Of a DNA stretch of 64,000 nucleotides, positions 1 to 13,234 are shown in pieces (position 1 is the stretch's first letter; each line of letters starts with the position of its first letter). Both the position numbers and the translations under genes were made by a program. Source of the DNA: Acetatifactor muris (lineage in GTDB: Bacteria > Bacillota > Clostridia > Lachnospirales > Lachnospiraceae). The DNA lies in assembly GCA_023664365.1 (NCBI GenBank), contig JAMPFR010000011.1:2922-66921 (forward strand), read 5' to 3'. The notes under the pieces were generated by a model. That model was not told where the DNA came from, made no database searches, and was given only the letters and a program-made list of their open reading frames with translations.

Positions 1-10
1 AATCAGTGCT

Positions 11-1516
11 ATGGATCATAAACTGCATATTCCTAAGCGTAATCGTCATAACAGTTGGATATCTGAAGTTAATGGATGGACAAGGAATCGGATTGAGTAC
101 AGTTTTCGGCCCGCTTCATGGAAACAATATGTGTCCGAAATTGATGATATGAGAAGGAATGTCAATGAGTTGATTTTAGAAACGATTAAGCTGATTGATG
201 ATATTTACAAAAGAGGGCATTATACAAAAGAAAGGTGGAAGCGGGTTGAACATCGAATAAAAACATTTAAAAACCATATATTTGCGGAAAACAGACTTCC
301 ATTTTTGGCTGTTGATCCATACTGTCTCTATTCGGAGGGGAACGTCAAATGTCCGATATTGGATTATTTGCCGACACGTCAATTACTTTCCGTTGAGAAA
401 TATGAAAAGTTTAGAAAATTGCTGAACGATGTATATTCTTCTATAAAAAAATTTTATGATCAGTTTGCTGAAGTTCTTGTGGTAAGGATTCAAAAACAGG
501 ATATTAGTACCGTCAATAATCCAAGACTTGCGATGTTTAACTTATTTTCAGCAGCAAAAACCATTGTCAGTTTCCAACAAGAGTATATTTCGTTGTTTTC
601 CAGATATAGTTCTCTTAAGGAATCTTTTGCACAACAAGAACTCGAAAATGTGTTGACCTTAGTCAATGTCTGGCGGCATGTACTTGATAATCAACCGAAG
701 GGATATGCGATTGCCTATGATGCAAAACAAAAATATCGAAAAGGTTATGATTATTTTGAAAATGCTCTTGCGAAAGCCGTATGTGAGATGAAGGGTACAC
801 TTGTGAAAACGGAGCATTATGCATATATTATTGTTGATTGCGATGTTTTACAAGGAGAGACTTTTGAAAGTAAATATTTAAGTACTGTGTTGCAGATTAG
901 GAGTGTGTTTAGCGGTGCATTGATGCCATCCAGTGACAGGTGGTATGTTGAGACACAATCGTTAGAACTTGCGTATATTCCCAGCATATCAGGAATATAT
1001 TTTCCGGCTGCATTTAGGATTTCGTTTTACAAAGTTTTTGATGTAGATGAATCACAAATAATGGATACGATGTTTCCATGCGAAATTGAACAAGGACTGG
1101 AAGGACGCATTTCATCTGGGGGAATGCATAACAGATGGATAGAGGCAATGCAGAAAATTAGTATGATAAAGCTTTATTTACAATGTTATAAGCAAGTTTT
1201 GCAAGTCCCTGTTGATGAAAAATGCAATAATAGTATAATTGCGTTTCGGGTATCTCTTGTGGAGAAAATAGGACTTTTTTGGAGGGAATTGGCATCCTGC
1301 GAAGTATTGGTCAAGAAGCTTGCAGAAGAGGCGGACGGAGAGAGTAAACAGTATTTGGAAATGGTAAAATTATTCTTTGATATTTTTGATGATGTAAAAA
1401 ACTGTATTGAGGATCATAGCGATCCAAGTGAAATTATGCAGGTGATAGACAGTGTTTTCGGTTTAATGATTTTGCTTTTGCCATATGTAATAGAGCATAG
1501 CCTTGAGTGTGAATGA
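11..1516 (+). CDS. Hypothetical protein, 501 aa in window. The frame is open back to position 2, so the true N-terminus may lie upstream of the window
   Basis: Long uninterrupted ORF in AT-rich DNA with no competing ORF. I recognise no catalytic, NTP-binding or transmembrane motif. Confidence 0.6.
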   Translation: MDHKLHIPKRNRHNSWISEVNGWTRNRIEYSFRPASWKQYVSEIDDMRRNVNELILETIKLIDDIYKRGHYTKERWKRVEHRIKTFKNHIFAENRLPFLAVDPYCLYSEGNVKCPILDYLPTRQLLSVEKYEKFRKLLNDVYSSIKKFYDQFAEVLVVRIQKQDISTVNNPRLAMFNLFSAAKTIVSFQQEYISLFSRYSSLKESFAQQELENVLTLVNVWRHVLDNQPKGYAIAYDAKQKYRKGYDYFENALAKAVCEMKGTLVKTEHYAYIIVDCDVLQGETFESKYLSTVLQIRSVFSGALMPSSDRWYVETQSLELAYIPSISGIYFPAAFRISFYKVFDVDESQIMDTMFPCEIEQGLEGRISSGGMHNRWIEAMQKISMIKLYLQCYKQVLQVPVDEKCNNSIIAFRVSLVEKIGLFWRELASCEVLVKKLAEEADGESKQYLEMVKLFFDIFDDVKNCIEDHSDPSEIMQVIDSVFGLMILLLPYVIEHSLECE

Positions 1517-1802
1517 ATTTGAGATGCCCGGTTGATAATACATACGGTTTAGCTTCGGCTATTAGTGAAGTAGAAGTCGAAAAATCAAAGATTTCCACCC
1601 GTGCGACTGCGCAAACGAATTTATAAAAAGGGTTAGTCCTTACTTGACAGCAGGGTACGGGGAGAAGGTGAAGGCGTATTTAAGGAAGGGGGCCAGGCCT
1701 TTGAGGGGAGAGGCGGAGGTTCCCAATGCAAGAGTCGGATGGGGAGCGGTCTGCGTCAGCGAGAGCCTGCCGGAGTGAGATTATTTATAAAGCGGGTATA
1801 AT

Positions 1803-1843
1803 TAGGGAAAATTTTGAAATTGTATATAGCAAAGTTTTCCCTA
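1803..1843. promoter_or_regulatory. Operator candidate 1: 41-bp palindrome TAGGGAA(A)-N-(T)TTCCCTA
   Basis: TAGGGAAA at 1803-1810 and its complement TTTCCCTA at 1836-1843, in the leader of the Fic/Doc-like gene. Confidence 0.45.
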
Positions 1844-1851
1844 CAATGTTA

Positions 1852-1880
1852 TTGAAATATAGGGAATTTTTTGTTAATAT
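1852..1880 (+). promoter_or_regulatory. Candidate sigma-A promoter of the Fic/Doc-like gene
   Basis: TTGAAA (1852-1857), 17-nt spacer, TAATAT (1875-1880). The left half-site of palindrome 2 lies in the spacer. Confidence 0.4.
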
Positions 1881-1901
1881 ATATTTTAATAAAGTTCCCT
1901 A
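1860..1901. promoter_or_regulatory. Operator candidate 2: 42-bp palindrome TAGGGAA-N-TTCCCTA
   Basis: TAGGGAA at 1860-1866 and TTCCCTA at 1895-1901, ending 4 nt before the GAAGGAG RBS (1906-1912). Confidence 0.45.
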
Positions 1902-1918
1902 TATGAAGGAGTATAAAA

Positions 1919-2857
1919 ATGGAGGCCAATTTTATAGAGATACAGGAACTTTTACAACAGAGAGCGGACTATCAGGCAAGATTAAAGCTTATGCCTTATG
2001 ACGGAACGCCTGAAATAAAAGAACAGGGCAGCGGTAAGTATCTATATATAAGGAAACGTATTGCCGGAAAACTGACATCTACATATGTGGGTGTTTACTC
2101 AGATGAGTTATATCAGCTGCTCTTGCGGAATGTCAGAGAAGCCAGGGAACTGAATAAGAACATTCGCCATGTAAATAAGAAACTGTCTTCATTAGGATAT
2201 GAGGATAAGGGGCTTTCCGGAAGAGTTTTGGATAATATGGAATTTGCCAGAGCAAACATGAAAGCAAACATTTATGATCAGGCAGTTTTGGAGGGAGTAG
2301 CGACATCTTTCCCGCAAACGGAAGAAATCATAGAGAATGGAATTGTCAATGGAGTATCTGCAGCAGATGTACAGAAAATTTTGAATTTAAAGCATGCGTG
2401 GGAATTTATATTAGATCAGGATGTGCTTCAAAGTGAGACGAATTATTACATGTTATGCCATGTTGCAAAGATCGTAAATGAAGGTTTTTTTTATGACGGA
2501 GGAAGAATCAGAGGAGTGCCGGTCACAATCGGGGCTTCCAGTTATATTCCGCCGCTGCCTGTGGAATCAGTGGTAAAGGAACAAATAGCCATAATAACCG
2601 GACAGGAGAAAGAAGCAATAGATGTTGCGATTGAATTATGCCTGTATTGCATGAAAACGCAAGTGTTTTTAGACGGAAATAAAAGAGCGTCCGTGATTTT
2701 TGCAAACCATTATTTGATTGCGCATGGAATGGGAGTTTTGGTGATACCGGAAAAAGAAGTGCCGGAGTTCAAGAAACTTCTTGTAGCATTTTATGAGGGC
2801 GAAGATGCCAGTGTACTATATGATTTTATGAAAGAGCGATGCTGGAAAAATTTTTGA
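1919..2857 (+). CDS. Fic/Doc-fold protein with a Doc-like core motif and Gln in place of the catalytic His
   Basis: Core motif QVFLDGNKRAS (aa 248-258) against Fic HPFxDGNGRxxR and Doc HxFx[DN][AG]NKR. An upstream LEG motif (aa 124-126) resembles the Fic inhibitory-helix [ST]xxxE[GN] with Gln121 at the S/T position. Strong RBS GAAGGAG. Confidence 0.75.
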   Translation: MEANFIEIQELLQQRADYQARLKLMPYDGTPEIKEQGSGKYLYIRKRIAGKLTSTYVGVYSDELYQLLLRNVREARELNKNIRHVNKKLSSLGYEDKGLSGRVLDNMEFARANMKANIYDQAVLEGVATSFPQTEEIIENGIVNGVSAADVQKILNLKHAWEFILDQDVLQSETNYYMLCHVAKIVNEGFFYDGGRIRGVPVTIGASSYIPPLPVESVVKEQIAIITGQEKEAIDVAIELCLYCMKTQVFLDGNKRASVIFANHYLIAHGMGVLVIPEKEVPEFKKLLVAFYEGEDASVLYDFMKERCWKNF

Positions 2858-2924
2858 CAGGATAGTTCTAATATAGAAAACGGAATCTGCAGTTTGGTTA
2901 TTTCGCGGGCAGAAAGGACACTTT

Positions 2925-3818
2925 ATGAAAAAGACCGTAAAAGATATTATACTCATTTTGTTGGTTGTGACATTGGGCGTTACCACTGCTCTTTTTGCAT
3001 ATTTGCATTTTTCCCGGCCGGACGACAGGAATCTTACCGGAGAGTGGGTGGCGGAGCTGGACATGACGGAACAGGCTGCTGTCACGGCTCTGGGCTGGCT
3101 GCAGGAGATAGAAGCCGTCTCCGTCTCTCTGGAGGATATGGAGGCATATATGCAGGATTTGACTGTTCAGGTCAGTCTCACTATGGAGCAGACCGGCCGT
3201 GCCGGGGGAAGCTTCCGCTGCCGGGTGCTGCCGGAAAGCTATGAGGCCTGCAGGCAGGCTGCCTATGAAGGCTTTGCCGGGGTCTTTCTGGAGCTTTTGA
3301 CCGAAAGGCTTCATATGGCGGGCTATACGGGCAGTACGGACAGGGAAACTCTGGAAGGACTGGTAACCGAGACCTTCGGCATGTCTGCGGCGTCCTATCT
3401 GATGGCCTGCGGCCCTGCCCTTTTGCCGTCGTTGGAGGAATTACAGGCGAAATATGAAGGCAGCGGCACCTATGAAGCAGCGGATGGCATCCTTATCAGG
3501 CGGTTTGCCGCGGACGGGTCTGCAGTCGGTGAGCCTGCCGCTGCCGGTTCTGCTGTCGGAGCGTCCGCATCCGGCGGTCCCGCCGTGGGAGAGAGTGCAA
3601 TCAGCGGAACAGTTGTAATATCCGCGTACTATATCCGGCAGGCATCCGGCCTGATCGTGACCGGACCAGTCAATGAAGAGGCTGATATTGACGCCGATAC
3701 GACCGTCGGCAGAGAAGCCGATACTGACAGTGATACAGCCGCCGGCAGAGCTGCCCTGCCGGGCGGATATTTTGACGATTACCCTATACTATATACCTTA
3801 AAACAGTCTCAGGAATAA
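2925..3818 (+). CDS. Membrane-anchored hypothetical protein with a low-complexity Ala/Gly/Ser-rich segment
   Basis: N-terminal hydrophobic helix (ILILLVVTLGVTTALFAY). Repeats such as GSAVGEPAAAGSAVGASASGGPAVGES. The shift to GC-rich DNA starts about 2880. Confidence 0.7.
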   Translation: MKKTVKDIILILLVVTLGVTTALFAYLHFSRPDDRNLTGEWVAELDMTEQAAVTALGWLQEIEAVSVSLEDMEAYMQDLTVQVSLTMEQTGRAGGSFRCRVLPESYEACRQAAYEGFAGVFLELLTERLHMAGYTGSTDRETLEGLVTETFGMSAASYLMACGPALLPSLEELQAKYEGSGTYEAADGILIRRFAADGSAVGEPAAAGSAVGASASGGPAVGESAISGTVVISAYYIRQASGLIVTGPVNEEADIDADTTVGREADTDSDTAAGRAALPGGYFDDYPILYTLKQSQE

Positions 3819-3829
3819 AAGGAGCTTCC

Positions 3830-5308
3830 ATGAAAAGAATGTTACGAAAGTTAAGTCCGTTTATTATGTCCGCAGTTATGGTGTGTTATATGATGTGGGC
3901 CGCCCTGCCTGTCAGCGCGGCCAATTATGAGATTCCCGGAACCTGTCAGGTACAGACGGATACCGGTATCTCCCGCAGGGTGAAAACCCTGGATTACAGC
4001 TATGAGAATAATACCTATCTCTCCCTCCGGGATATGGCCGTGGCGCTGAAAGGTACGGACAAAGCATTCTCCCTGGAGATTAAGAAAAGTGCCGTTTCCC
4101 TGAACATTGGGGGCGAATATGCTCCTGTGGGAACGGAAGAATTTTTCTGGGAGAACAGTGAAAATCCGGATATCACCCTGCGGCGGAATGAATTTAAGGT
4201 AAACGGACAGGACGTATATTATTATACCATGATTACGAAGCTGCCCTCCGGCTATTATGACTGCTTTATGATGGCGGCGGATCTGGCTATGATTCTGGAT
4301 ACGGATATCCATGTCTCTGAGGAAGGTTCTGTGGAAATCAATACGGGAGAGCCCTTCAGCGTTTCTCCTGCCGAACTGGAACAGGACGGATATTTTTACG
4401 GGGTGAACAGTGTGCTGGTGGGGGACGCAGGCACCGGAGAAATTTATTATCGGTACCAGTCTGACGAGGCATATCCCATAGCCAGCACCACCAAGCTTAT
4501 GACATGCCTTCTGACCTTGGAAGCCATTTCGGAGGGGCGGCTTGCCCCGGAGGAACAGGTGACGGTTTCGGAGGCGGCCCAGACTCTGGCCGCCTCGTCG
4601 GACGGTGTGCTGCCGCTGGAAGCGGGACAACGGATCACGGTGCGGGAGCTGCTGTTGGGCGCTCTTCTGCCCTCCAGCAACGAGTGCGCGCTGTGCCTGG
4701 CGGAAAGAATTGACGGTTCGGAGGAAGCCTTTGTGGAAAGGATGAATCAGAAAGCCCTGGATTTGGGACTTTCTCAGGCAATTTTCTTCAACAGCCACGG
4801 CCTGCCTTACTATACCGAGGAGGCTGTTCCCGCAAAGTGCCAGAACCGTATGAGCGCGGAGGATATGTTCCGGCTGGTATCTTATCTTTTAAAGGTGTAT
4901 CCCCAGATTACGGACATGACTTCCCTGAAATCCGCCACCCTGGAATCCCTTGGCCGGGAAGTGCGCAATACCAACCCGCTTCTGTATAATCTGCCGGGGG
5001 TTACCGGGTTAAAAACCGGAACCACCAATAAAGCAGGCGCCTGCCTGATTACGTCTCTGCCTGTGGACGACGGAGTTATGGAGCATGATCTGGTGGTGAT
5101 CGTGCTGGGGACGGAGGATTCCATAGAGCGGGGCCGGGTCTCGGGGCTGCTGGCAAGATATGCCATGCAGGCTTTTGCAACGGGAACCGAAGGCGTCATG
5201 GACGGAGAGCAGTCTGAAACCGGAGAAGCCCTGCAGACGCCCGGGAAGCTGCCGGTAAATGCGGAGGCGGCGGTAGACTGCATTTTGCGGACGGCAAAAA
5301 AGCGCTGA
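3830..5308 (+). CDS. Serine-type D-Ala-D-Ala carboxypeptidase (S11/PBP5-like) with an N-terminal extra domain of about 200 aa
   Basis: Signal peptide. SxxK (STTK), SxN (SSNE) and KTG (KTGTT) motifs in the canonical order. Confidence 0.88.
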   Translation: MKRMLRKLSPFIMSAVMVCYMMWAALPVSAANYEIPGTCQVQTDTGISRRVKTLDYSYENNTYLSLRDMAVALKGTDKAFSLEIKKSAVSLNIGGEYAPVGTEEFFWENSENPDITLRRNEFKVNGQDVYYYTMITKLPSGYYDCFMMAADLAMILDTDIHVSEEGSVEINTGEPFSVSPAELEQDGYFYGVNSVLVGDAGTGEIYYRYQSDEAYPIASTTKLMTCLLTLEAISEGRLAPEEQVTVSEAAQTLAASSDGVLPLEAGQRITVRELLLGALLPSSNECALCLAERIDGSEEAFVERMNQKALDLGLSQAIFFNSHGLPYYTEEAVPAKCQNRMSAEDMFRLVSYLLKVYPQITDMTSLKSATLESLGREVRNTNPLLYNLPGVTGLKTGTTNKAGACLITSLPVDDGVMEHDLVVIVLGTEDSIERGRVSGLLARYAMQAFATGTEGVMDGEQSETGEALQTPGKLPVNAEAAVDCILRTAKKR

Positions 5309-5398
5309 AGGTTGTTTTTTTTCATAGATGCTGATATACTTATGATATTCGGGTAGTGATACCCGCATTTTGAGTGGAAAGAAATAAGAGGTACTATT

Positions 5399-8300
5399 AT
5401 GAACATGAAGAAACAAAAGCCGTTACGAGGAATCCTTTACGCCGTTTTTCTGATGGCGGGTATTATTCTGTTGTTCTTCTGGTTTACGAAGCAGAACAGC
5501 AGACGGACAGAAGAGCAGAACCGGGATTATGCCGCGGATTCCGCCCGTATGAAGGCGGAGCATATCGATCACGAGCTGACCAATGCCCTGAACAGGATCA
5601 GGACCTATTCCTATTTTGTGGGAGAAAGTCTGACAGAGCCGACGATTACCGCGGAGCTGCTGGCGAGGCTGGAGGAAAATTCCCAGTTTGACGCCATTAT
5701 GTATACGGACGTAAACGGTACGGACTATATTTCCGACGGGCGGACCGCGGATGTGACATATCGGGAGTTCTATATTGAAGGCATCAAGGGAAACAGCGGC
5801 GTTGAGATCATATTCAATCCGCACTTTTTTCCGGGGACAAAGGTGGCCTGCTTTTACACGCCGGTCTATTATAAGGGAGAGCTCATAGGGGTGCTGCGGG
5901 GGGCTTTCCTGGCGGAGGAATATCTGCAGGATATGCTTGCCACTACTTACTTCGGAGAAACGGCGCAGGTGTATCTGTGTATGACGGACGGCAGGCTGAT
6001 GGCCAGTTCAGACGGAACGGCTTATGACGGGCATCTTCTTGATATGCTGACGGAGGAAGAGATGATTGACCGGAAGGCTGCGGAGCAGGTGCGTAATATT
6101 CTGGAAAATGGCGGGGAGGGTGCGTTCAACTGCGATTCTTCCAGCAGTACGGACAATATATGTGTTATGCATCTGCCCAATAATCCCTATGTTCTGGTAC
6201 AGACATTTCCCAAAAACGTGACACAGAGCATGATAGCCAAAGAAAATCTGGTGGGCGTCCAGCTGGAGGCCATGCTCATTGCGCTGTTTGTGGTCTATAT
6301 TGCTATCATCCTGCTTCGGGCAGGGCGCAGGCGTAAGCTGCTGGAGAAGGAAAACCGGGAGATGGGTTACATCATAAGCGGCGTGAATACGTTATTTACC
6401 CGATTTGCCATGGTTGATTTTGAAGAAAATACTTATCAGTATCTGGCGGAAACAAAGCCGGAGGGAGAAATTGCGGAAAGCGGAAATTATCAGGATCTTA
6501 TCGTTTACCTGGCTTCCCCCCTGGTAGAAGGCAGTTGTCAGGACTTTATGGATTTCATGGACAGAGACGCCATTATCAGCGCCATGTCAAAACGGGACGA
6601 TCTGCGGTATGAGTGCTGTGTCATCAGAAACGGGCGTCAGGAATGGGAGCATATGAACTTGGTGTGTCTGGAGAGAAAGGACAATCAGGTTTCAAAGGTT
6701 CTGTTTATTCGCCAGAATGTAACGGAATTGAAGGAAAGAGAACTGCGCATCCAGGCGGAGAGAGCTACTGCAAACCGCAAGGAGAGACAGTATCAGATAG
6801 CAATCATGTCCAATTCCTTCTGCAGCTTCGAGTTCAATCTGACTCAGGATATTGTGGAACAGGACATTGTCAGAGTGGTAGACGGGCAGAAGGTGTCGCT
6901 TCTGGAGCAGGCGGGGTTGAAGGCTCCCTGCAGGGCTTCCGAGTGCTTTGAAAAATGGAAACGGTTTGTCCTTGAGGAATCGCTGGAGGAGTATTCCGCC
7001 GTCGTAAATACGGAGAATCTGCTTCGCTGCTATGCCCGGGGAGAAAGAGAAGTGGTGGCCGAATACTGGGGAACGGATTCGGACGGGGGACAGATGTGCG
7101 TGCGGCAGTCCTTTGTGATGACCCAGGACGACAACACGGGAGACGTCCTGGTCATGGTGGTGTCCAAAGACATTACGGAGCAGGTGAGAAAGCAGCGTGA
7201 GCAGACCCAGGCCCTGCAGGACGCGCTGCTCCAGGCGCAGCATGCCAATAAGGCAAAGACTACGTTCCTGTCCAATATGTCTCATGACATCCGCACTCCC
7301 ATGAATGCCATTATCGGCTTTTCCACCATTGCCGTCAGCCATATTGACAACAGGGAGCAGGTTCTGGACTGCCTGCAGAAGGTTCTCTCCTCCAGCAATC
7401 ATCTGCTCAGCCTGATTAACGATATTCTGGACATGAGCAGGATCGAGAGCGGTAAGGTACAGATTAAGGAGCAGGAGTGCAATATCTCCGAGCTGATGCA
7501 CAATCTGGTAAATATTATCCAGCCTCAGATCAAGGCAAAGCAGCTGGAGCTGTTTATCGATACCTTTGAAGTTGCCAATGAGGATGTGATTGCCGACCCG
7601 TTGAAGCTGAATCAGGTGTTCATCAATCTGTTGAGCAATGCGGTGAAATACACGCCGGCGGGAGGCACGGTCTCCTTCCGGATCATGCAGAAGACCACCT
7701 TCCGACACGGATACGGGGATTACACGTTTATCATTAAAGACAACGGCATCGGTATGTCTCCCGAGTTTGTGGAGCATATTTTTGAACCCTTTGAGCGGGA
7801 ATCCACGGTGACCCAGAGCGGTATCCAGGGAACGGGACTGGGCATGGCCATCACCGAGAATATAGTAGAGATGATGAACGGCACCATTAACGTGGAGAGC
7901 GAAGCAGGTAAGGGCAGCACCTTTACGGTGAACCTGGAGCTGAAGCTCCAGGATACGGAAAAGAATGCGGAGCAGATCAAGGAGCTGGAAGGGCTGCGGG
8001 CATTGGTGGTGGACGATGATTTCAATACCTGTGACAGTGTCAGCCGGATGCTGAAGCAGATCGGCCTGCGCTCCGAGTGGACAACCTCCGGCAAGGAGGC
8101 GGTGTATCGTGCGAAGGGTGCCCGTGCGGAGGGAGATTCCTACCATACCTTCATTATCGACTGGCAGATGCCGGGCTTAAGCGGCGTGGAAACTGCCCGG
8201 CAGATTCGGCAGGTGATTGGCAGCGAGGCGGCCATTATCATTCTCACTGCCTATGAGTGGTCGGATATAGAGGATGAGGCAAGGGCTGCAGGGGTGACTG

Positions 8301-8791
8301 CCTTCTGCGCCAAGCCCATGTTTATGTCGGATTTGAAAAATGTGCTGCTGGCCGCTAACAATCTGCAGGAGAAACAGGAGGAAGTACCGGAATGGACCCT
8401 GGCTGATTTCAGCGGGAAACGGGTTCTCCTGGTGGAGGACAACGAGCTGAACCGGGAGATAGCCCAGGTGATCCTGGAGGAGTCCGGCTTTCTGGTGGAT
8501 ACGGCGCCGGACGGAACGGATGCAGTGGCCATTATGGAAAAGGCGGAGGAGCATTACTATGACGCCATACTGATGGATGTGCAGATGCCGATCATGAACG
8601 GTTATGAGGCCACCAGAACAATCCGCAGGCTTCCCAGAGAGGATGTGAAGGATCTGCCCATTATCGCCATGACTGCCAACGCCATGGAGGAGGACAAGGA
8701 GACGGCGTTAATGAACGGCATGAACGCCCATATTGCAAAGCCGCTGGATATGGACATCTTTATCGGGGTGCTGAAAAAGTTTATGGGGTAA
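5399..8791 (+). CDS. Hybrid sensor histidine kinase with an extracytoplasmic sensor region and two C-terminal receiver domains
   Basis: Two TM segments flank a sensor region. H-box SHDIRTPMNAI, N-box LLSNAVKYTPAGG, G-boxes DNGIGM and GTGLGM. Two REC domains (VVDDD...DWQMPGLSG and LVEDN...MDVQMPIMNG). Confidence 0.92.
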   Translation: MNMKKQKPLRGILYAVFLMAGIILLFFWFTKQNSRRTEEQNRDYAADSARMKAEHIDHELTNALNRIRTYSYFVGESLTEPTITAELLARLEENSQFDAIMYTDVNGTDYISDGRTADVTYREFYIEGIKGNSGVEIIFNPHFFPGTKVACFYTPVYYKGELIGVLRGAFLAEEYLQDMLATTYFGETAQVYLCMTDGRLMASSDGTAYDGHLLDMLTEEEMIDRKAAEQVRNILENGGEGAFNCDSSSSTDNICVMHLPNNPYVLVQTFPKNVTQSMIAKENLVGVQLEAMLIALFVVYIAIILLRAGRRRKLLEKENREMGYIISGVNTLFTRFAMVDFEENTYQYLAETKPEGEIAESGNYQDLIVYLASPLVEGSCQDFMDFMDRDAIISAMSKRDDLRYECCVIRNGRQEWEHMNLVCLERKDNQVSKVLFIRQNVTELKERELRIQAERATANRKERQYQIAIMSNSFCSFEFNLTQDIVEQDIVRVVDGQKVSLLEQAGLKAPCRASECFEKWKRFVLEESLEEYSAVVNTENLLRCYARGEREVVAEYWGTDSDGGQMCVRQSFVMTQDDNTGDVLVMVVSKDITEQVRKQREQTQALQDALLQAQHANKAKTTFLSNMSHDIRTPMNAIIGFSTIAVSHIDNREQVLDCLQKVLSSSNHLLSLINDILDMSRIESGKVQIKEQECNISELMHNLVNIIQPQIKAKQLELFIDTFEVANEDVIADPLKLNQVFINLLSNAVKYTPAGGTVSFRIMQKTTFRHGYGDYTFIIKDNGIGMSPEFVEHIFEPFERESTVTQSGIQGTGLGMAITENIVEMMNGTINVESEAGKGSTFTVNLELKLQDTEKNAEQIKELEGLRALVVDDDFNTCDSVSRMLKQIGLRSEWTTSGKEAVYRAKGARAEGDSYHTFIIDWQMPGLSGVETARQIRQVIGSEAAIIILTAYEWSDIEDEARAAGVTAFCAKPMFMSDLKNVLLAANNLQEKQEEVPEWTLADFSGKRVLLVEDNELNREIAQVILEESGFLVDTAPDGTDAVAIMEKAEEHYYDAILMDVQMPIMNGYEATRTIRRLPREDVKDLPIIAMTANAMEEDKETALMNGMNAHIAKPLDMDIFIGVLKKFMG

Positions 8792-8815
8792 GGAAAGGGA
8801 GCTGACAATCAATAA

Positions 8816-9152
8816 ATGATCACAGGCGAATTAAAAAATAAGATTGACAATATGTGGGATGTGTTTGCAGCGGGCGGCCTGGTAAATCCGCTGGAGGTCA
8901 TTGAACAGGTCACCTATTTGATGTTTATTCATGACATGGATGACGCAGATAACATCAGGGCGGAACGGCCAATTTAGAACTCCCCGCCATATTATTCGCA
9001 TGATGGTGGAATTAATGGCCCCCAAGCCGGAGGATACCATTTGTGACCTGGCCTGCGGTACATCCGGGTTTCTGGTGACGGCAGGGGAATACCTGAAAGA
9101 AATCTGGCTGGATTTGATTTTGAGCCGGGAACTTCACATGGTGGTGGATTGA
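8816..9152 (+). pseudogene. hsdM: Type I restriction-modification methyltransferase (HsdM) remnant, frameshifted and truncated
   Basis: Frame 2 reads ...[35 protein letters not shown] then a stop. Frame 0 reads [42 protein letters not shown] then ends early. Both are typical HsdM N-terminal and AdoMet-motif blocks. Confidence 0.8.
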
Positions 9153-9224
9153 AGCGAGGATGATAATATAGTCTTGAAAGCATTTTTGTAACATGACATA
9201 GGGGATGCAGAAGGAGTGCGGAAA

Positions 9225-9506
9225 ATGAACAACGAATTAATAAGGGAAAAAGTATTGTCAATTGTGGATGAATATCCAATAAAAAGGATTACTTTGTTTG
9301 GATCGCGTGCAGAAGAAACAAATCAGGAGAACAGTGATGTGGATCTGATTATGGAGTTTTCAGAACCAATCTCGCTTTTGATGTTATCAGATATCAAATT
9401 GCAATTAGAAGATATTTTAGGCTTGAAGGTAGATATTGTCCACGGCCCGATTCGAGAGGGGGATTTGCTTGAGGTGGGGAAGGAGATAGAATTATATGCC
9501 GCATAG
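9225..9506 (+). CDS. mntA: Nucleotidyltransferase-domain antitoxin (MNT/MntA type)
   Basis: GSRAEETNQENSDVDL matches the GS-x(9-10)-DxD minimal nucleotidyltransferase motif. RBS AAGGAG is 8 nt upstream. The gene overlaps the downstream HEPN gene by 11 nt. Confidence 0.85.
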   Translation: MNNELIREKVLSIVDEYPIKRITLFGSRAEETNQENSDVDLIMEFSEPISLLMLSDIKLQLEDILGLKVDIVHGPIREGDLLEVGKEIELYAA

Positions 9507-9834
9507 GGATAGAATTATCATACAGAAGATATTATCAGAAATTGATATTGGGATTGATATGGTGGGAGAAGAAGAATTGAAGGGTTTTCTGAGCGATGAA
9601 AAGCTAAAAAGAGCAATAGGCATGACTGTGCTAAATATAGGATAATTAGTAAAAAACATTACAGAAGAAACCCGTAAAAGATATACGCAAATACCATGGA
9701 GAGCTATTGCGGGGATGAGAGATATTACGGCACATAAATATCAGACGCTGAGAATGGAAGATGTGTATTATATGGTTCAAAATGATTTTCCGACGTTAAG
9801 GGAGCAGTTAAGAGAGATATTGTCTAAGGAATAG
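9496..9834 (+). pseudogene. hepT: HEPN-domain (DUF86/HepT-type) toxin gene interrupted by an in-frame TAA
   Basis: Reads MPHRDRIIIQKILSEI...TVLNIG-TAA(9643-9645)-LVKNITEE...AGMRDITAHKY. The Rx4H HEPN motif (RDITAH) lies downstream of the stop. Related proteins usually have Glu at the stop position (from memory), so GAA->TAA is likely. Confidence 0.8.
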
Positions 9835-9866
9835 TATAAAAGTACAGATTTGTAGGAGACAAATAG

Positions 9867-10290
9867 ATGTCAAAAATAAAGATATCGGATGTAGCTGAGC
9901 AAATAAGAGGTGTTTCATATAAACCTGAAGATGTTCTGGATGGCCCAGGAGTGAATGCAAGTGGAATTGCTAAGAAAAGGGGATATTTTGATATGTGCTT
10001 CAAACGGAAGCAAGCATCTTGTTGGAAAAGCGGCGCAAATTGAAGCTGATTCTGAATATAGTTTTTTGGAATGTATTTTCAAAGCGATTTGTATCGGCGG
10101 TATATTTCGGGGGTATCACAAGGAGCAGACATTAGCAATATAAGGAATGAAGATATAGAGGCAATCAAAATTCGAGAATATTCTGATGTAGAGCAAGTAA
10201 AAATTGCCAAGTTGTTGCAAATGATTACTAATATAATCAGACATCAAAAAAACAACTTGTTGCGCTGGATGAATAATGGACATGCACTTG
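9867..10290 (+). pseudogene. hsdS: Type I R-M specificity subunit (HsdS) remnant with frameshifts and an internal deletion
   Basis: Three frames carry HsdS-like blocks: MSKIKISDVAEQIRGVSYKPEDV, then LRKGDILICASNGSKHLVGKAAQIE, then SQGADISNIRNEDIEAIKI...EQVKIAKLL. No second target-recognition domain is present. Confidence 0.7.
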
Positions 10291-10485
10291 GATTCGTAGA
10301 GGCCATAGGAATTGGTGAATCTATCTTGGCTTTTTGGAATATTATGGGCGGAGCGGAAAATGCGTTGAATATGCAGATGACAGCCGCGAACCAAACAGAT
10401 ATAGATATGTTGGAAGAGGTACAGTGACAGGGAGATGCTTTTAAAAGTAAAATGTAATATGATTGTTGATATTATACGAGGAGGA

Positions 10486-10761
10486 ATGGCTATGATGTAT
10501 CCGTTTATGACGTTGGAGGACAATACAGAAATTGTTCACTCAGAGCAATTGGAAAATGGGGAGGTAAAAGTTTATATTGAAACACCGGATGAAAAGGATT
10601 GTTTCCATAACATGACTTGCTATTTACCCTCCTATCGGTTGGAGGTAAATGGCTATTCAGAGGATGAGGTTAGTTATTACATGGAAATTATTAAATCTAC
10701 GGCACATCTGATAATAGAGTTTTCAAAAGAGGGGGGATTTATGAATGCCTCAGGTTTTTAA
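10486..10761 (+). CDS. Small hypothetical protein (about 91 aa), first gene of an overlapping pair
   Basis: RBS GAGGAGGA immediately upstream of the ATG. A 17-nt overlap with the next ORF suggests translational coupling. Confidence 0.55.
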   Translation: MAMMYPFMTLEDNTEIVHSEQLENGEVKVYIETPDEKDCFHNMTCYLPSYRLEVNGYSEDEVSYYMEIIKSTAHLIIEFSKEGGFMNASGF

Positions 10762-11023
10762 GATAGGTTCCTATTGGGTATATTTTTGGGCAAATGAGGG
10801 GAAGCCTAATGAACCGGTACATGTGCATATATCGGAAGGCAGCCCATCAGAAAATGCCACAAAAATATGGATTACGGCTTCGGGGAAATGTCTGCTGGCA
10901 CATAATAATTCCCAGATACCGCCCAAAATATTGCGAAATATCATGAGAATCATTGAAGCACGCAGTTCTCAAGTGATTCAAAAGTGGATTTCCTTTTTTG
11001 GGTCTGCAACGTATTATTGTTGA
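10745..11023 (+). CDS. DUF4160-like small protein
   Basis: YWVYFWANEGKPNEPVHVHI resembles the DUF4160 signature (F-Y/F-x-x-E-x-x-x-P-H-V/I-H-V), recalled from memory. Confidence 0.6.
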   Translation: MPQVFKIGSYWVYFWANEGKPNEPVHVHISEGSPSENATKIWITASGKCLLAHNNSQIPPKILRNIMRIIEARSSQVIQKWISFFGSATYYC

Positions 11024-11076
11024 CGAGAACTTCCGTTCAGAGAACAGGACGTAGAATAACGGGGAGGAAAATTCCG

Positions 11077-11280
11077 GTGACGAACTTCGATTACTTAAAG
11101 GCGGGCTATGGAATTTGACGTTTGCTTATTGCAGGCTCAGCCGCAAACAGGCATATTGCAGGATACATACGCGGATGATGCGGCGGCATGAGCTCGACTT
11201 TCCTAAAGGGAAGGTAACAAGCAAAGAACTTGCAGCCGAACCCCCCGGGCGCTGGCGGAATGGATCTTTTGCGTGAACTG
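11077..11280 (+). pseudogene. hsdR: Possible remnant of the N-terminus of a type I restriction endonuclease subunit (HsdR)
   Basis: RBS GGGGAGGAAA then GTG, reading VTNFDYLKAGYGI-stop, like the MxNFxFLK start of HsdR. A later block reads RALAEWIF in another frame. The evidence is weak and fragmentary. Confidence 0.3.
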
Positions 11281-11312: not shown

Positions 11313-12215
11313 ATGGCAGGATATTTATTTGTACATTTTATCGGGGAGGAAAAGGACGGGGAGCAGATTTATTTCTCCTTAAGCAGGGACGGCCTGCACT
11401 GGAATGACTTGAATGGCGGAAAGCCGGTGCTGTATTCCAAGACGGGTACAAAGGGGGTTCGGGATCCGTATCCTGTCAGAGATCCCGGGAACGGAAAGAT
11501 CTATCTGATTGCCACGGATCTGCGCATTGAGGCAGGGAACGGCTGGACAGCCGCCCAGGAAGCGGGAAGCCGGGATCTGATTGTGTGGGAAACGGAGGAT
11601 CTGATTCATTGGAGCGGGGAGCGCGCCTGCACGGTGGGAGTGCCGGGGGCAGGCTGCGTATGGGCGCCGGAGGCAGTGTTTGACCGGGAAAAGGGTAAAT
11701 TCCTTGTGTTTTTCGCCTCCAAGGTAAAAAGAGACGGAGAAGCGGAGGGCAGGCACCGGATATATGCCGCCTACACGGATGATTTCCGGGAATTTACAGA
11801 AACCTTTCTCTATATGGAGCGGGACAACCATGTGATTGACGCCACCATACTGGAAAGCAAGGGACATTTCTACCGGGTGTCAAAGGACGAGACGGTGAAA
11901 CGGCTGATTCTGGAGAAGGCGGATTCTCTTCTGGGTGAGTTTACCCGGATAGAATCGCCGGTGCTGGACGCCCTGGAAGGGGTGGAGGGGCCGGAGGGCT
12001 ATCTGCTGCCTGGCGGAGAATGGTGTCTGATTGCAGATCAATTCGCGGCAGGCAAGGGGTATCTGCCGCTGGTAACCGATGATTTGGGTTCCGGCAGATT
12101 CAGAATACTGAAGCCGGATCAGTATGATATGGGCAAAACAAAAAAGCGCCATGGCGGAATCCTGGAAATTACGGATGAGGAGTATGGCAGGCTGGAAGGT
12201 GCATACGGAATTTGA
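11313..12215 (+). CDS. Glycoside hydrolase family 43-like protein
   Basis: Five-bladed-propeller style blocks (GVRDPYPVRD, LIATDLR, CVWAPEAVFD, KGHFYRVSKDE). RBS AGGAGG. Confidence 0.75.
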   Translation: MAGYLFVHFIGEEKDGEQIYFSLSRDGLHWNDLNGGKPVLYSKTGTKGVRDPYPVRDPGNGKIYLIATDLRIEAGNGWTAAQEAGSRDLIVWETEDLIHWSGERACTVGVPGAGCVWAPEAVFDREKGKFLVFFASKVKRDGEAEGRHRIYAAYTDDFREFTETFLYMERDNHVIDATILESKGHFYRVSKDETVKRLILEKADSLLGEFTRIESPVLDALEGVEGPEGYLLPGGEWCLIADQFAAGKGYLPLVTDDLGSGRFRILKPDQYDMGKTKKRHGGILEITDEEYGRLEGAYGI

Positions 12216-12237
12216 CAGGGAAACGGAAGATATGTTG

Positions 12238-12474
12238 TTATGGCTCCCTTAAAACCTCGATCCCGGTATCGGAGTACATATCCAGCAGTCCCACGATCTC
12301 ATTTGCGGGGCGGCCGTATACATGGCAGCATTTACGGTCAGTTTTGCTGTGTTCTTCCTGGGTCTCATCCATGCCCACGCTCATGCGGGCAGCCCCCAGA
12401 CCCGTTTCACTGTCCAGGTGGCGGATGATTTCGTCTATCAGATAGTCTCGGTTTTGATTTTTTTGATTTTCCAT
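12238..12474 (-). CDS. Small hypothetical protein (78 aa)
   Basis: ORF with an AAAGGAAAA RBS upstream on the minus strand. No motif recognised. Confidence 0.5.
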   Translation of the reverse strand: MENQKNQNRDYLIDEIIRHLDSETGLGAARMSVGMDETQEEHSKTDRKCCHVYGRPANEIVGLLDMYSDTGIEVLREP

Positions 12475-12556
12475 GGCGGGTTATTTTCCTTTCCTGTTGC
12501 GGCGGCCTGTGCCGCCTGTTTTTAATGCCTGCTTTGTGATGCCTGCTTTGCAACGC

Positions 12557-13234
12557 TTATTTTGTGATGCGGTTGAGAATGCCGTCCACGTCGATTCCCG
12601 GATGGGTTGAGTACATACGGCAGATCTGTTCCGTCAATTCACAGGAGATGCCGCACTTTGCCGCAATGTCCCCCAAGGGCCTGCCCCTGTCAAACTCCCT
12701 TATCACCGCTCTGACAGCGGCGGCCCGGTCTATAGAGCTTTCCGGCAGGGCGACGCTCCTTTCCCCTGCAATATCCTTTCTGATGATCCGGCAGCGGCCG
12801 TTTTCGTCTATTTCCGCTACGGCCATGGTGATGGGCAGGGTAAAACGCCGTTTGCCGCAGCTGCCGGGGTTCAGCCGGATCTGCCCGTCCTTTTTCTCCA
12901 GAGCGTATTTGTGGGAATGGCCGTAAATGATAAAGTCTGCGTCCGCGGCGTCTGCGGAACTTTCTTTTTTGTTGTGAATCATGTAGAAGCGGTGCCCGAA
13001 TAAGTCTGTTGTCAATTCCGCGGGCAGGCCTTCAGCCCACTCCTTGTCGGCGTTTCCCCGCACCGCATACAGCGGCTTCAGCTTCCGCAGGCTGTCCAGA
13101 ATGTCCTGCCGGTCAATGTCTCCGGCATGGAAAATAACGTCGCAGGTCTGCAGTATCTCTGTGACCTCCGGCCGAAGCAGGCCGTGTGTGTCCGAAATAA
13201 TCCCAATTCGATGCAACGTGAGTTCCTCCCGCAA
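12557..13234 (-). CDS. YfcE/MJ0936-type metallophosphoesterase with a C-terminal extension of about 65 aa
   Basis: Motifs SDTHG, HAGD, GNAD and GHSH in the canonical calcineurin-like order. Confidence 0.85.
   Translation of the reverse strand: MREELTLHRIGIISDTHGLLRPEVTEILQTCDVIFHAGDIDRQDILDSLRKLKPLYAVRGNADKEWAEGLPAELTTDLFGHRFYMIHNKKESSADAADADFIIYGHSHKYALEKKDGQIRLNPGSCGKRRFTLPITMAVAEIDENGRCRIIRKDIAGERSVALPESSIDRAAAVRAVIREFDRGRPLGDIAAKCGISCELTEQICRMYSTHPGIDVDGILNRITK

Follow-up and report, generated by a model that had tools for sequence, protein, structure and literature searches.

The left end of a 64,000-nucleotide stretch of an Acetatifactor muris contig carries two adjacent genes in conspicuously AT-rich DNA, and the question that this locus raises is whether the two belong together. 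(We call the whole stretch the window; all coordinates are those of the window, and numbers such as L001 or L100 denote comparison loci.) A sequence-only reading of the window had proposed that a 501-amino-acid (aa) open reading frame (ORF) and the 312-aa Fic/Doc-like protein encoded next to it are partners in a two-gene module. Comparison with other genomes suggests a different history. We consider it probable that the stretch consists of two independent accessory segments abutting at a strain-variable hotspot: segment A, which holds the tail of a nuclease-STAND gene (the 501-aa ORF), and segment B, which carries a gene that we call FicL and whose product would be a self-repressing, non-canonical Fic protein.

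The compositional observations behind the original proposal held up. Bases 1-2900 have a G+C content of 36-40%, and the remainder of the window has a mean of 0.523 (52%). The first three 1-kb windows (0.36, 0.385, and 0.397) stand apart from the others (0.46-0.59), and the sole other low-G+C block lies at 9001-11000 (0.38-0.39). The switch is as abrupt as had been described and falls at 2858-2925: the second ORF stops at 2857, and the next gene starts at 2925. The two ORFs, too, are present as reported (Table 1). The AT-rich stretch is, however, non-uniform, being interrupted by high-G+C DNA at 1655-1781. This interruption bears on the 400-bp spacer between the two genes, which had been read as noncoding: the two large palindromes reported in it are there, but bases 1655-1778 are an in-frame relic of another gene.

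That relic is the 3' end of cspB, which we take to be a germination-protease-like gene. In two comparison loci, L006 and L017, a cspB gene lies directly 5' of FicL, and tblastn with the CspB proteins of these loci aligned the relic at 79-82% identity (E = 4e-17 and 8e-14) with the same stop codon; no further part of the cspB gene was found in the window with either query. The relic DNA is 84% identical to the end of the intact 732-aa cspB of L100, the closest available genome (its DacB-like protein is 85% identical), and its G+C content is 0.614 vs 0.36-0.40 on both sides. Because the 3' end of cspB stands in frame at 1655-1778, it places a junction between the STAND gene and FicL; judged from these alignments, the relic is host core sequence that marks the boundary of two accessory segments. 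The arrival or rearrangement of segment A (1 to ~1654) would have removed all of cspB except its last 41 codons.

L100 shows what the site looks like without either gene. Its gene order runs from the intact cspB through YefM/ParE and JetABCD (Wadjet) to a block that the window has as well, made of a 284-aa protein gene, dacB, and a hybrid-kinase gene. DNA alignment pairs window 1655-1779 with L100 1260-1384 and window 2912-8961 with L100 9122-15147; between these blocks the window and L100 share nothing, and L100 has no FicL and no STAND gene. Since L100 retains the core flanks (85-87% nucleotide identity in the flanking core genes) and lacks both genes, both AT-rich segments appear to be accessory, as had been claimed for the island, yet they are, on this alignment, separate events. 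Deviant composition and the absence of both genes from the syntenic site of L100 identify the stretch as an island; no mobility signatures such as an integrase, a tRNA target, or flanking direct repeats were seen in bases 1-3000, where no tRNA scan was made and from which the island's left end extends beyond the window. The FicL cassette has sharp junctions, one right after the cspB stop and the other 13 nt 5' of the next ATG, and its ends show no target-site duplication or terminal repeat, only 6-mers. Segment B (1780-2911) is thereby delimited, as far as synteny can tell, as a self-contained one-gene cassette. On the other side of the relic, the 138 bp that follow the STAND gene resemble none of L006, L017, and L100 upstream of the cspB relic; neither an Rfam match nor a terminator-like site was found in them. 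An Rfam scan of bases 1-4000 found no credible RNA, only two sub-threshold eukaryotic families; the spacer therefore is not a known riboswitch or small RNA.

The same slot holds other cargo elsewhere, namely AbiEi/AbiEii in L006 and an AlbA_2/HATPase_c_4 regulator with Wadjet in L017. From these alignments the cspB-to-dacB slot is documented as a defence hotspot in this lineage, with FicL, YefM/ParE plus Wadjet, and AbiE as its cargos, and it should be useful for mining further systems. At the position of FicL, L100 1515-9138 consists of a YefM/ParE toxin-antitoxin pair followed by a complete JetABCD operon.

Homologues of the two genes do not travel together. The STAND protein found no homologue by tblastn in 92 FicL loci (794 kb), and FicL found no FicL gene in 7 STAND loci, so that homologues of the two were never adjacent in either set (0/92 and 0/7). 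These context sets are metagenomic and partly short, and flank genes were called by a simple longest-ORF rule. Clustering of the FicL flanks gave 30 groups upstream (from 78 loci) and 20 downstream (from 71 loci). The 118 neighbour proteins match 139 Pfam families, no family occurring in more than three proteins, and no antitoxin-like partner gene is conserved beside FicL across these 30 upstream and 20 downstream contexts and 118 proteins. Similarity between loci ends at the FicL stop codon and ~120-190 nt 5' of the ATG. Because co-occurrence is lacking, the neighbours are diverse, and the cspB junction lies between the genes, we reject the two-gene Fic/Doc module; the proposed STAND/FicL pair does not exist as such, and the effort of cloning it can be saved.

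If FicL stands alone, what kind of protein does it encode? Residues ~100-312 can confidently be assigned a Fic fold in the structural model. The Pfam Fic profile scored 24.3 bits against a cut-off of 24, phmmer aligned residues 117-295 to the Fic domain of FICD structures, and an AlphaFold2 model (29-sequence alignment; predicted local distance difference test score, pLDDT, 89) matched FICD in Foldseek with E = 1e-9 and CdFic with a target-normalised template modelling (TM) score of 0.79 and a root-mean-square deviation (rmsd) of 2.7 Å. The active-site loop, QVFLDGNKRASV, carries the motif QxFxDGNKR; it resembles Doc in having N-K-R and no second Arg, and it has Gln at the position of the catalytic His. 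The earlier description of a Fic-fold protein with a Doc-type motif thus stood for the fold and the Doc-like NKR, but not for the catalytic residue. Gln replaces His in 120/120 best homologues and in 61/64 motif-bearing distant cluster representatives, down to ~30% identity, and the exchange is therefore to be regarded, from these alignments, as a family trait and not as decay in one genome. Other parts of the domain are conserved as well: E125-G126 aligns with the inhibitory-helix E-G of FICD, which makes it class-II-like, and the flap region is retained.

To our knowledge, every active Fic or Doc enzyme carries the catalytic His. In a degenerate Fic toxin, its loss abolished toxicity (PMC5651007). 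Because Gln replaces the catalytic His and the second Arg is absent, FicL is unlikely to use the canonical mechanism, that is, AMPylation or phosphorylation; its pocket and flap would more likely bind a nucleotide or a protein. The family-wide loss of His also weakens the view of FicL as a classic toxin.

The first 95 residues of FicL form a separate domain in the model (Table 1). DUF6788 matches it locally with 13 bits and is present in precomputed annotations, one FicL relative reaches the SSV1 D-335 family (22.3 bits vs a cut-off of 22), and Foldseek returned low-probability matches to phage integrases. A profile of the domain had no significant match in PDB, and a literature search on DUF6788 found no paper. 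The shape of the modelled fold and its context suggest that the domain may bind DNA.

The DNA in front of FicL is consistent with such a role. A search for TAGGGAA-N20-35-TTCCCTA in the 64 kb gave exactly two matches, vs 0.01 expected by chance. These palindromes, TAGGGAAC...GTTCCCTA, are 41-42 bp long and lie on both sides of the FicL promoter, with the -35 box between the first (O1) and the second (O2) and the -10 box central in O2; four of the five TAGGGAA heptamers in the window fall in O1 and O2. The survey covered the 89 FicL loci whose upstream sequence was long enough. In 86 of them a TAGGGA[AG]-N-[CT]TCCCTA palindrome, 41-42 bp in length, occurs at least once within 140 nt 5' of the ATG, and 59 have both. 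Their positions are fixed at ~-120 (O1) and ~-62 (O2) from the ATG, and a TTGAxA box and a central TATAAT-like box are conserved across 56 distinct upstream regions. The ~790 kb of FicL loci hold no other such palindrome, and the STAND loci hold none. The half-site has the consensus TAGGGAACTTTT; conservation is confined to the outer 7-12 bp, and the AT-rich centre is variable. In O1 of L007 the two arms differ from those of the window at matching positions (left A to C, right T to G).

We considered an RNA-hairpin reading of the palindromes and discarded it, as the -10 box lies inside O2, so that the left arm would be untranscribed, and only the outer 7-12 bp are conserved. By its sequence, the arrangement of palindromes and promoter is the layout of a repressor-controlled promoter. 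Since no gene other than FicL is found with the sites every time, self-repression at O1 and O2 would be the most economical reading: a FicL dimer would bind both operators through the basic N-terminal beta-sheet domain and repress its own transcription. A 91-aa ORF in another frame (1726-2001) crosses the cspB relic, the operators, and the FicL start, and is almost certainly spurious.

FicL belongs to a very large and uncharacterised subfamily. A word-indexed search returned more than 8,000 homologues, mostly from gut Firmicutes, with 1,763 cluster representatives at E <= 0.001. The ratio of nonsynonymous to synonymous substitution rates (dN/dS) is 0.035-0.082 against six homologues, with synonymous sites near saturation, which points to strong purifying selection on a protein that has nevertheless exchanged His for Gln. 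FicL is thus a clean test case for the role of a "dead" Fic domain and for whether Fic domains can act as ligand-sensing parts of DNA-binding regulators. Its G+C content is 0.34-0.41 in all loci, vs 0.33-0.54 in the flanks. A phage origin was examined and dismissed, since relatives occur in only 2 of 50,697 phage records, though PHROG 11900 shares the domain. In a PADLOC scan FicL matched PDC-S04 only, weakly (E = 5e-4 and 4e-3), and no SoFic model; PDC-S04 is a computational candidate for which one study found no defence activity.

The surroundings of FicL vary even between close relatives. In one population, 38 loci share the downstream flank and a FicL that is ~99% identical in DNA, and they have at least 12 different upstream contexts, which break ~150 nt 5' of the ATG. 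Among the upstream occupants are IS110 and DDE transposases, a TIR/SEFIR-domain protein, an HsdR/Res-type helicase, DUF2971, and an ORF6N protein. Among the FicL neighbours of all contexts, PADLOC recognized a type II restriction endonuclease, PD-T4-6, PDC-S05, AbiEii, bSEFIR, ThsA, SIR2, and mad2, and Pfam recognized JetA; other loci have, next to FicL, AbiE, SIR2-TPR, Wadjet, or a ThsA-like SIR2-STALD gene accompanied by a TIR gene. Judging by these neighbours, FicL most likely sits in defence and mobile-element hotspots.

One pair of FicL loci shows an unusual rearrangement. The contigs of L007 and L012 are 99.9% identical, and a 2.2-kb segment 3' of FicL (L007 9081-11388; ~2550-4770 in L012) is inverted between them. 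The segment carries the ThsA-like SIR2-STALD gene and the TIR gene and is bounded by perfect 85-bp inverted repeats, and a XerC-like tyrosine recombinase is encoded ~2.3 kb beyond it. It is a candidate for an invertible (phase-variable) Thoeris-like locus.

Segment A presents a different kind of gene. Only the C-terminal third of the STAND gene lies inside the window, whose edge cuts it; looking up the exact sequences of the window's FicL and DacB-like proteins, with a view to reading further upstream on the contig, gave no match. As had been suspected, the 501-aa ORF is the C-terminal part of something larger: its frame is open to base 2, and it aligns to homologues of ~1,345 aa. When one genome per species was scanned, five relatives came up, and three of these matches fall on the C-terminal third of an ORF of 1,344-1,349 aa. 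The proteins of these three loci (L001, L003, and L004) align end to end and share the invariant motifs GVSGQGK (Walker A) and D..EAVQxK. The 501-aa ORF itself has no meaningful match in Pfam, NCBIfam, PHROGs, or PADLOC. In the full-length homologues, PADLOC LmuA matches residues 12-173 of the L001 protein (E = 7.7e-7), Pfam Cap4_nuclease reaches 13-18.5 bits in all three (cut-off 26.2), and nSTAND3, nSTAND5, and nSTAND6 reach 17-20 bits around the Walker A motif (cut-offs 27-34 bits). Because all Pfam scores lie below their cut-offs, the assignment of nuclease and NTPase depends on the motifs and on the agreement of three diverged homologues. Weak but consistent signals thus suggest a gene for ~1,345 aa in an Avs-like single-gene layout, in which a Cap4/LmuA-like nuclease is followed by a P-loop STAND-like NTPase and then by ~800 aa of C-terminal region. 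To this extent the claim of defence-type cargo was borne out, in the architecture of the larger protein and with family matches under the curated thresholds.

An AlphaFold2 model of the 504 aa inside the window (19-sequence alignment; pLDDT 81) consists mainly of helices, apart from a small alpha/beta insert. Foldseek found no fold in PDB better than E = 0.65. The region has no TPR signature, and the full-length family has no PDB match in sequence and profile searches and matches no solved Avs structure by sequence. The genes that flank the STAND homologues differ in L001, L003, L004, and L014 with none in common, and the gene therefore looks like a one-gene system. Over 1,344 aa, the homologue of L003, a Christensenellaceae metagenome-assembled genome (MAG), shares 91% identity with that of L004, a Desulfosporosinus MAG, which by sequence indicates recent horizontal transfer between bacterial classes. 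By analogy with Avs, the gene may have a defence function in which the C-terminal part would be a sensor binding a phage-derived trigger; this would allow NTP-dependent oligomerisation and switch on the nuclease. The C-terminal region, confidently modelled and without a structural relative, is a candidate for a further Avs-type sensor. In L001, the product of the gene 3' of the STAND gene (11641-12654) is 337 aa long and weakly matches a Cthe_2314-like HEPN (E = 0.0027); comparison with the STAND loci L002, L003, L004, and L014 turned up no relative of it.

Set against known systems, the stretch contains a new member of an Avs-like nuclease-STAND kind, of which it holds the tail only, and a member of a variant Fic family whose motif lacks the His, whose N-terminus carries an additional domain, and whose operators are private to it; the functions of both are predicted from sequence. 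Like Doc of the phage P1 Phd/Doc pair (Fido superfamily), FicL has a Fic/Doc fold with N-K-R in place of N-G-R and no second Arg, and, as with phd-doc, palindromic operators at the gene's own promoter appear to control it. Unlike Doc, it has Gln for the catalytic His, scores only 15.5 bits with NCBIfam DOC_P1 (cut-off 38.65), has no Phd-like antitoxin gene beside it in our neighbour survey, and, at 312 aa, carries an additional beta-sheet domain at its N-terminus as well as an inhibitory-helix motif of its own that is class-II-like. The class II Fic AMPylases, human FICD/HYPE and CdFic of Clostridium difficile, are its best structural matches, and their inhibitory E-G aligns with that of FicL. 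Identity to them is only 13-20%, however, their HxFx(D/E)GNGRxxR is QxFxDGNKRxx[VIL] in FicL, and FicL has neither the TPR nor the membrane anchor, while its N-terminal domain is absent from FICD and CdFic. AMPylation requires the canonical His motif. SoFic, a single-gene anti-phage protein that is reported to act by AMPylation (PMC12249575), is likewise a stand-alone Fic-fold gene among defence systems, but FicL has no SoFic match in PADLOC and no canonical His motif.

The order predicted for the STAND homologues puts a Cap4-like PD-(D/E)xK nuclease at the N-terminus, a P-loop STAND NTPase after it, and a large region at the C-terminus, which resembles the Cap4-STAND-sensor order published for Avs3 and Avs7 (bioRxiv 10.64898/2026.01.04.697583). 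Like these, the nuclease-STAND protein is encoded by a single gene that lies among mobile and defence DNA and has spread horizontally. It differs in that no Avs/AVAST model or solved Avs structure matches it and its C-terminal 504 aa show neither a TPR signature nor a fold match in PDB. The N-terminus of the L001 homologue also resembles LmuA, the Cap4-nuclease effector of Lamassu, over the residues given above. Unlike Lamassu, the homologues in L001, L003, and L004 have no adjoining LmuB/SMC or LmuC, and unlike LmuA they are proteins of ~1,345 aa with a predicted P-loop NTPase of their own.

How do other explanations fare? That the 501-aa protein and FicL are partners in a toxin, defence, or addiction module on one island is hardly credible: the genes are adjacent, on the same strand, both AT-rich, and both missing from the syntenic site of the nearest relative, but besides the lack of co-occurrence a host-gene relic of host-like G+C separates them, FicL has its own promoter and operators and stands alone in at least 30 contexts, and the first gene is the tail of a 1,345-aa protein found without FicL in four other genomes. 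The 501-aa ORF might instead be a stand-alone pseudogene fragment starting near base 11. It has an ATG there, and remnants do exist (L002 has a C-terminal piece of 390 + 75 aa only, the L013 sequence is broken up into three ORFs, and database homologues of 300-870 aa are numerous). We regard this as rather unlikely, given that the frame is open through base 2, that 504 uninterrupted codons align to the full C-terminal third of the L001 protein, and that the source contig of 67,418 bases has 3,418 beyond the window, which, if upstream, are enough for the missing 2.5 kb. For the palindromes, the exchange of the FicL cassette precisely between core genes, and the tyrosine recombinase and invertible segment near FicL in L007/L012, would fit recombination sites that move the cassette, or sites for an unlinked host factor. 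Such roles are quite improbable: the palindromes keep a constant spacing to the ATG, enclose the -35 and -10 boxes, and lie inside the cassette, O1 starting 23 bp from the left junction with nothing comparable at the right end, and most loci have no recombinase nearby.

The function of FicL itself leaves more room for disagreement. It could be an active single-gene toxin or abortive-infection effector, in the manner of SoFic or Doc, with non-canonical chemistry, self-inhibited and released by phage. Its Fic fold, conserved FxDGNKR loop and flap, and E125-G126 aligned to the inhibitory Glu of FICD would suit this role, as would its occupation of slots that elsewhere hold toxin-antitoxin and defence systems, the weak match to the candidate PDC-S04 (E = 5e-4), the tight autoregulation typical of toxin genes, and SoFic as a reported precedent for one-gene Fic defence (PMC12249575). 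We nevertheless think it unlikely, as the catalytic His, needed for toxicity in tested Fic proteins (PMC5651007), is absent family-wide, PDC-S04 is unverified and was inactive in the one study noted above, no SoFic model matched, and a dN/dS of 0.04-0.08 is below expectation for arms-race genes. The same very strong purifying selection, with saturated synonymous sites, would be expected of a conserved cellular regulator of Lachnospiraceae (e.g., in sporulation or germination) that adjoins variable DNA only incidentally; several FicL contexts adjoin cspB, the spoIIAA-spoIIAB-sigF operon, or spoVAB, and homologues number in the thousands in gut Firmicutes. We give this little credence, because the nearest relative has no FicL in the syntenic slot, FicL's G+C of 0.40 marks it as foreign to a genome at 0.52 and keeps to 0.34-0.41 irrespective of the flanking host DNA, and the operator motif occurs only at the FicL promoter, with no regulon visible in 64 kb + 790 kb. 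A further, tentative idea, which we also hold to be unlikely, is that FicL is a single-chain descendant of a Fic/Doc toxin-antitoxin pair, in which one self-repressing protein unites an N-terminal domain that binds the operators with an internal inhibitory helix and a Doc-like domain devoid of the His. FicL would then act, by binding or by non-canonical chemistry instead of AMPylation or phosphorylation, as an infection sensor or as a one-gene element of addiction or defence, resident in defence-island hotspots of gut Lachnospiraceae, and if this is true it would be a new kind of such an element.

Several observations weigh against our own preferred reading of two independent segments with a self-repressing FicL. 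A host factor encoded elsewhere could bind the palindromes, and the similarities of the FicL N-terminus to DNA-binding folds are marginal. Fido-fold proteins without the His can still be enzymes. The conservation of FicL is very strong, which is unusual for a defence or toxin gene, many of its neighbours are housekeeping genes, and the association with defence genes is qualitative. For segment A, every nuclease and NTPase family match scores under its curated cut-off, no PADLOC AVAST/Avs model matched the window ORF or its homologues, the gene's N-terminal portion lies outside the window, and truncated relatives exist (L002 and many short database matches).

Table 1. Features of the AT-rich stretch, the FicL protein, and the full-length STAND homologues
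Feature	Position	Strand	Description	Basis
Segment G+C	1-1516		0.361	Composition
Segment G+C	1517-1654		0.413	Composition
Segment G+C	1655-1781		0.614	Composition
Segment G+C	1782-1918		0.226	Composition
Segment G+C	1919-2857		0.399	Composition
ORF 1	11-1516	+	501 aa; frame open back to base 2	ORF list
STAND gene tail	2-1516	+	Last 504 codons + stop; putative sensor region	Open frame, homologue alignment
Spacer 3' of STAND gene	1517-1654 (138 bp)		Belongs to STAND-side segment	G+C 0.413
cspB relic	1655-1778 (124 bp)	+	3' end, 41 codons + original TGA stop; CspB-type subtilisin (Peptidase_S8)	tblastn, DNA alignment
FicL cassette	1780-2911	+	Promoter, operators, ORF, 54-bp tail	Synteny with L100
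O1, putative operator	1803-1843		Upstream of -35 box; TAGGGAAAATTTTG-N13-CAAAGTTTTCCCTA	Palindrome search
Sigma-70-type promoter-like site	1852-1880	+	TTGAAA, 17 nt, TG-n-TAATAT	Consensus scan
O2, putative operator	1860-1901		Over -10 box and likely transcription start; TAGGGAATTTTTT...AAAGTTCCCTA	Palindrome search
ORF 2 (FicL)	1919-2857	+	312 aa	ORF list
FicL N-terminal parts	Within first 95 residues		Helix; three-stranded beta-sheet (30-59); long basic helix (62-91)	AlphaFold2 model
Full-length STAND homologue	L001:7475-11524		1,349 aa; 59% identity to window region over residues ~846-1349	
Full-length STAND homologue	L003:7463-11497		1,344 aa; 30-32% identity to window region	
Full-length STAND homologue	L004:7226-11266		1,346 aa; 30-32% identity to window region	

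A second AT-rich block lies beyond the core genes that the window shares with L100. Bases 8800-11100 (G+C 0.38-0.39) contain no ORF longer than 135 aa and carry hsdM- and hsdS-like fragments of a type I restriction-modification system, the hsdS label coming from a reading of the translations. Labels obtained in the same way are a small nucleotidyltransferase ORF (9216-9506), a short HEPN-fragment-like ORF that follows it, and an ORF resembling DUF4160 (10745-11023). The block looks like a decayed defence locus, and the DNA at 8816-9102 matches two hsdM genes that lie 3' of the same kinase gene in L100.

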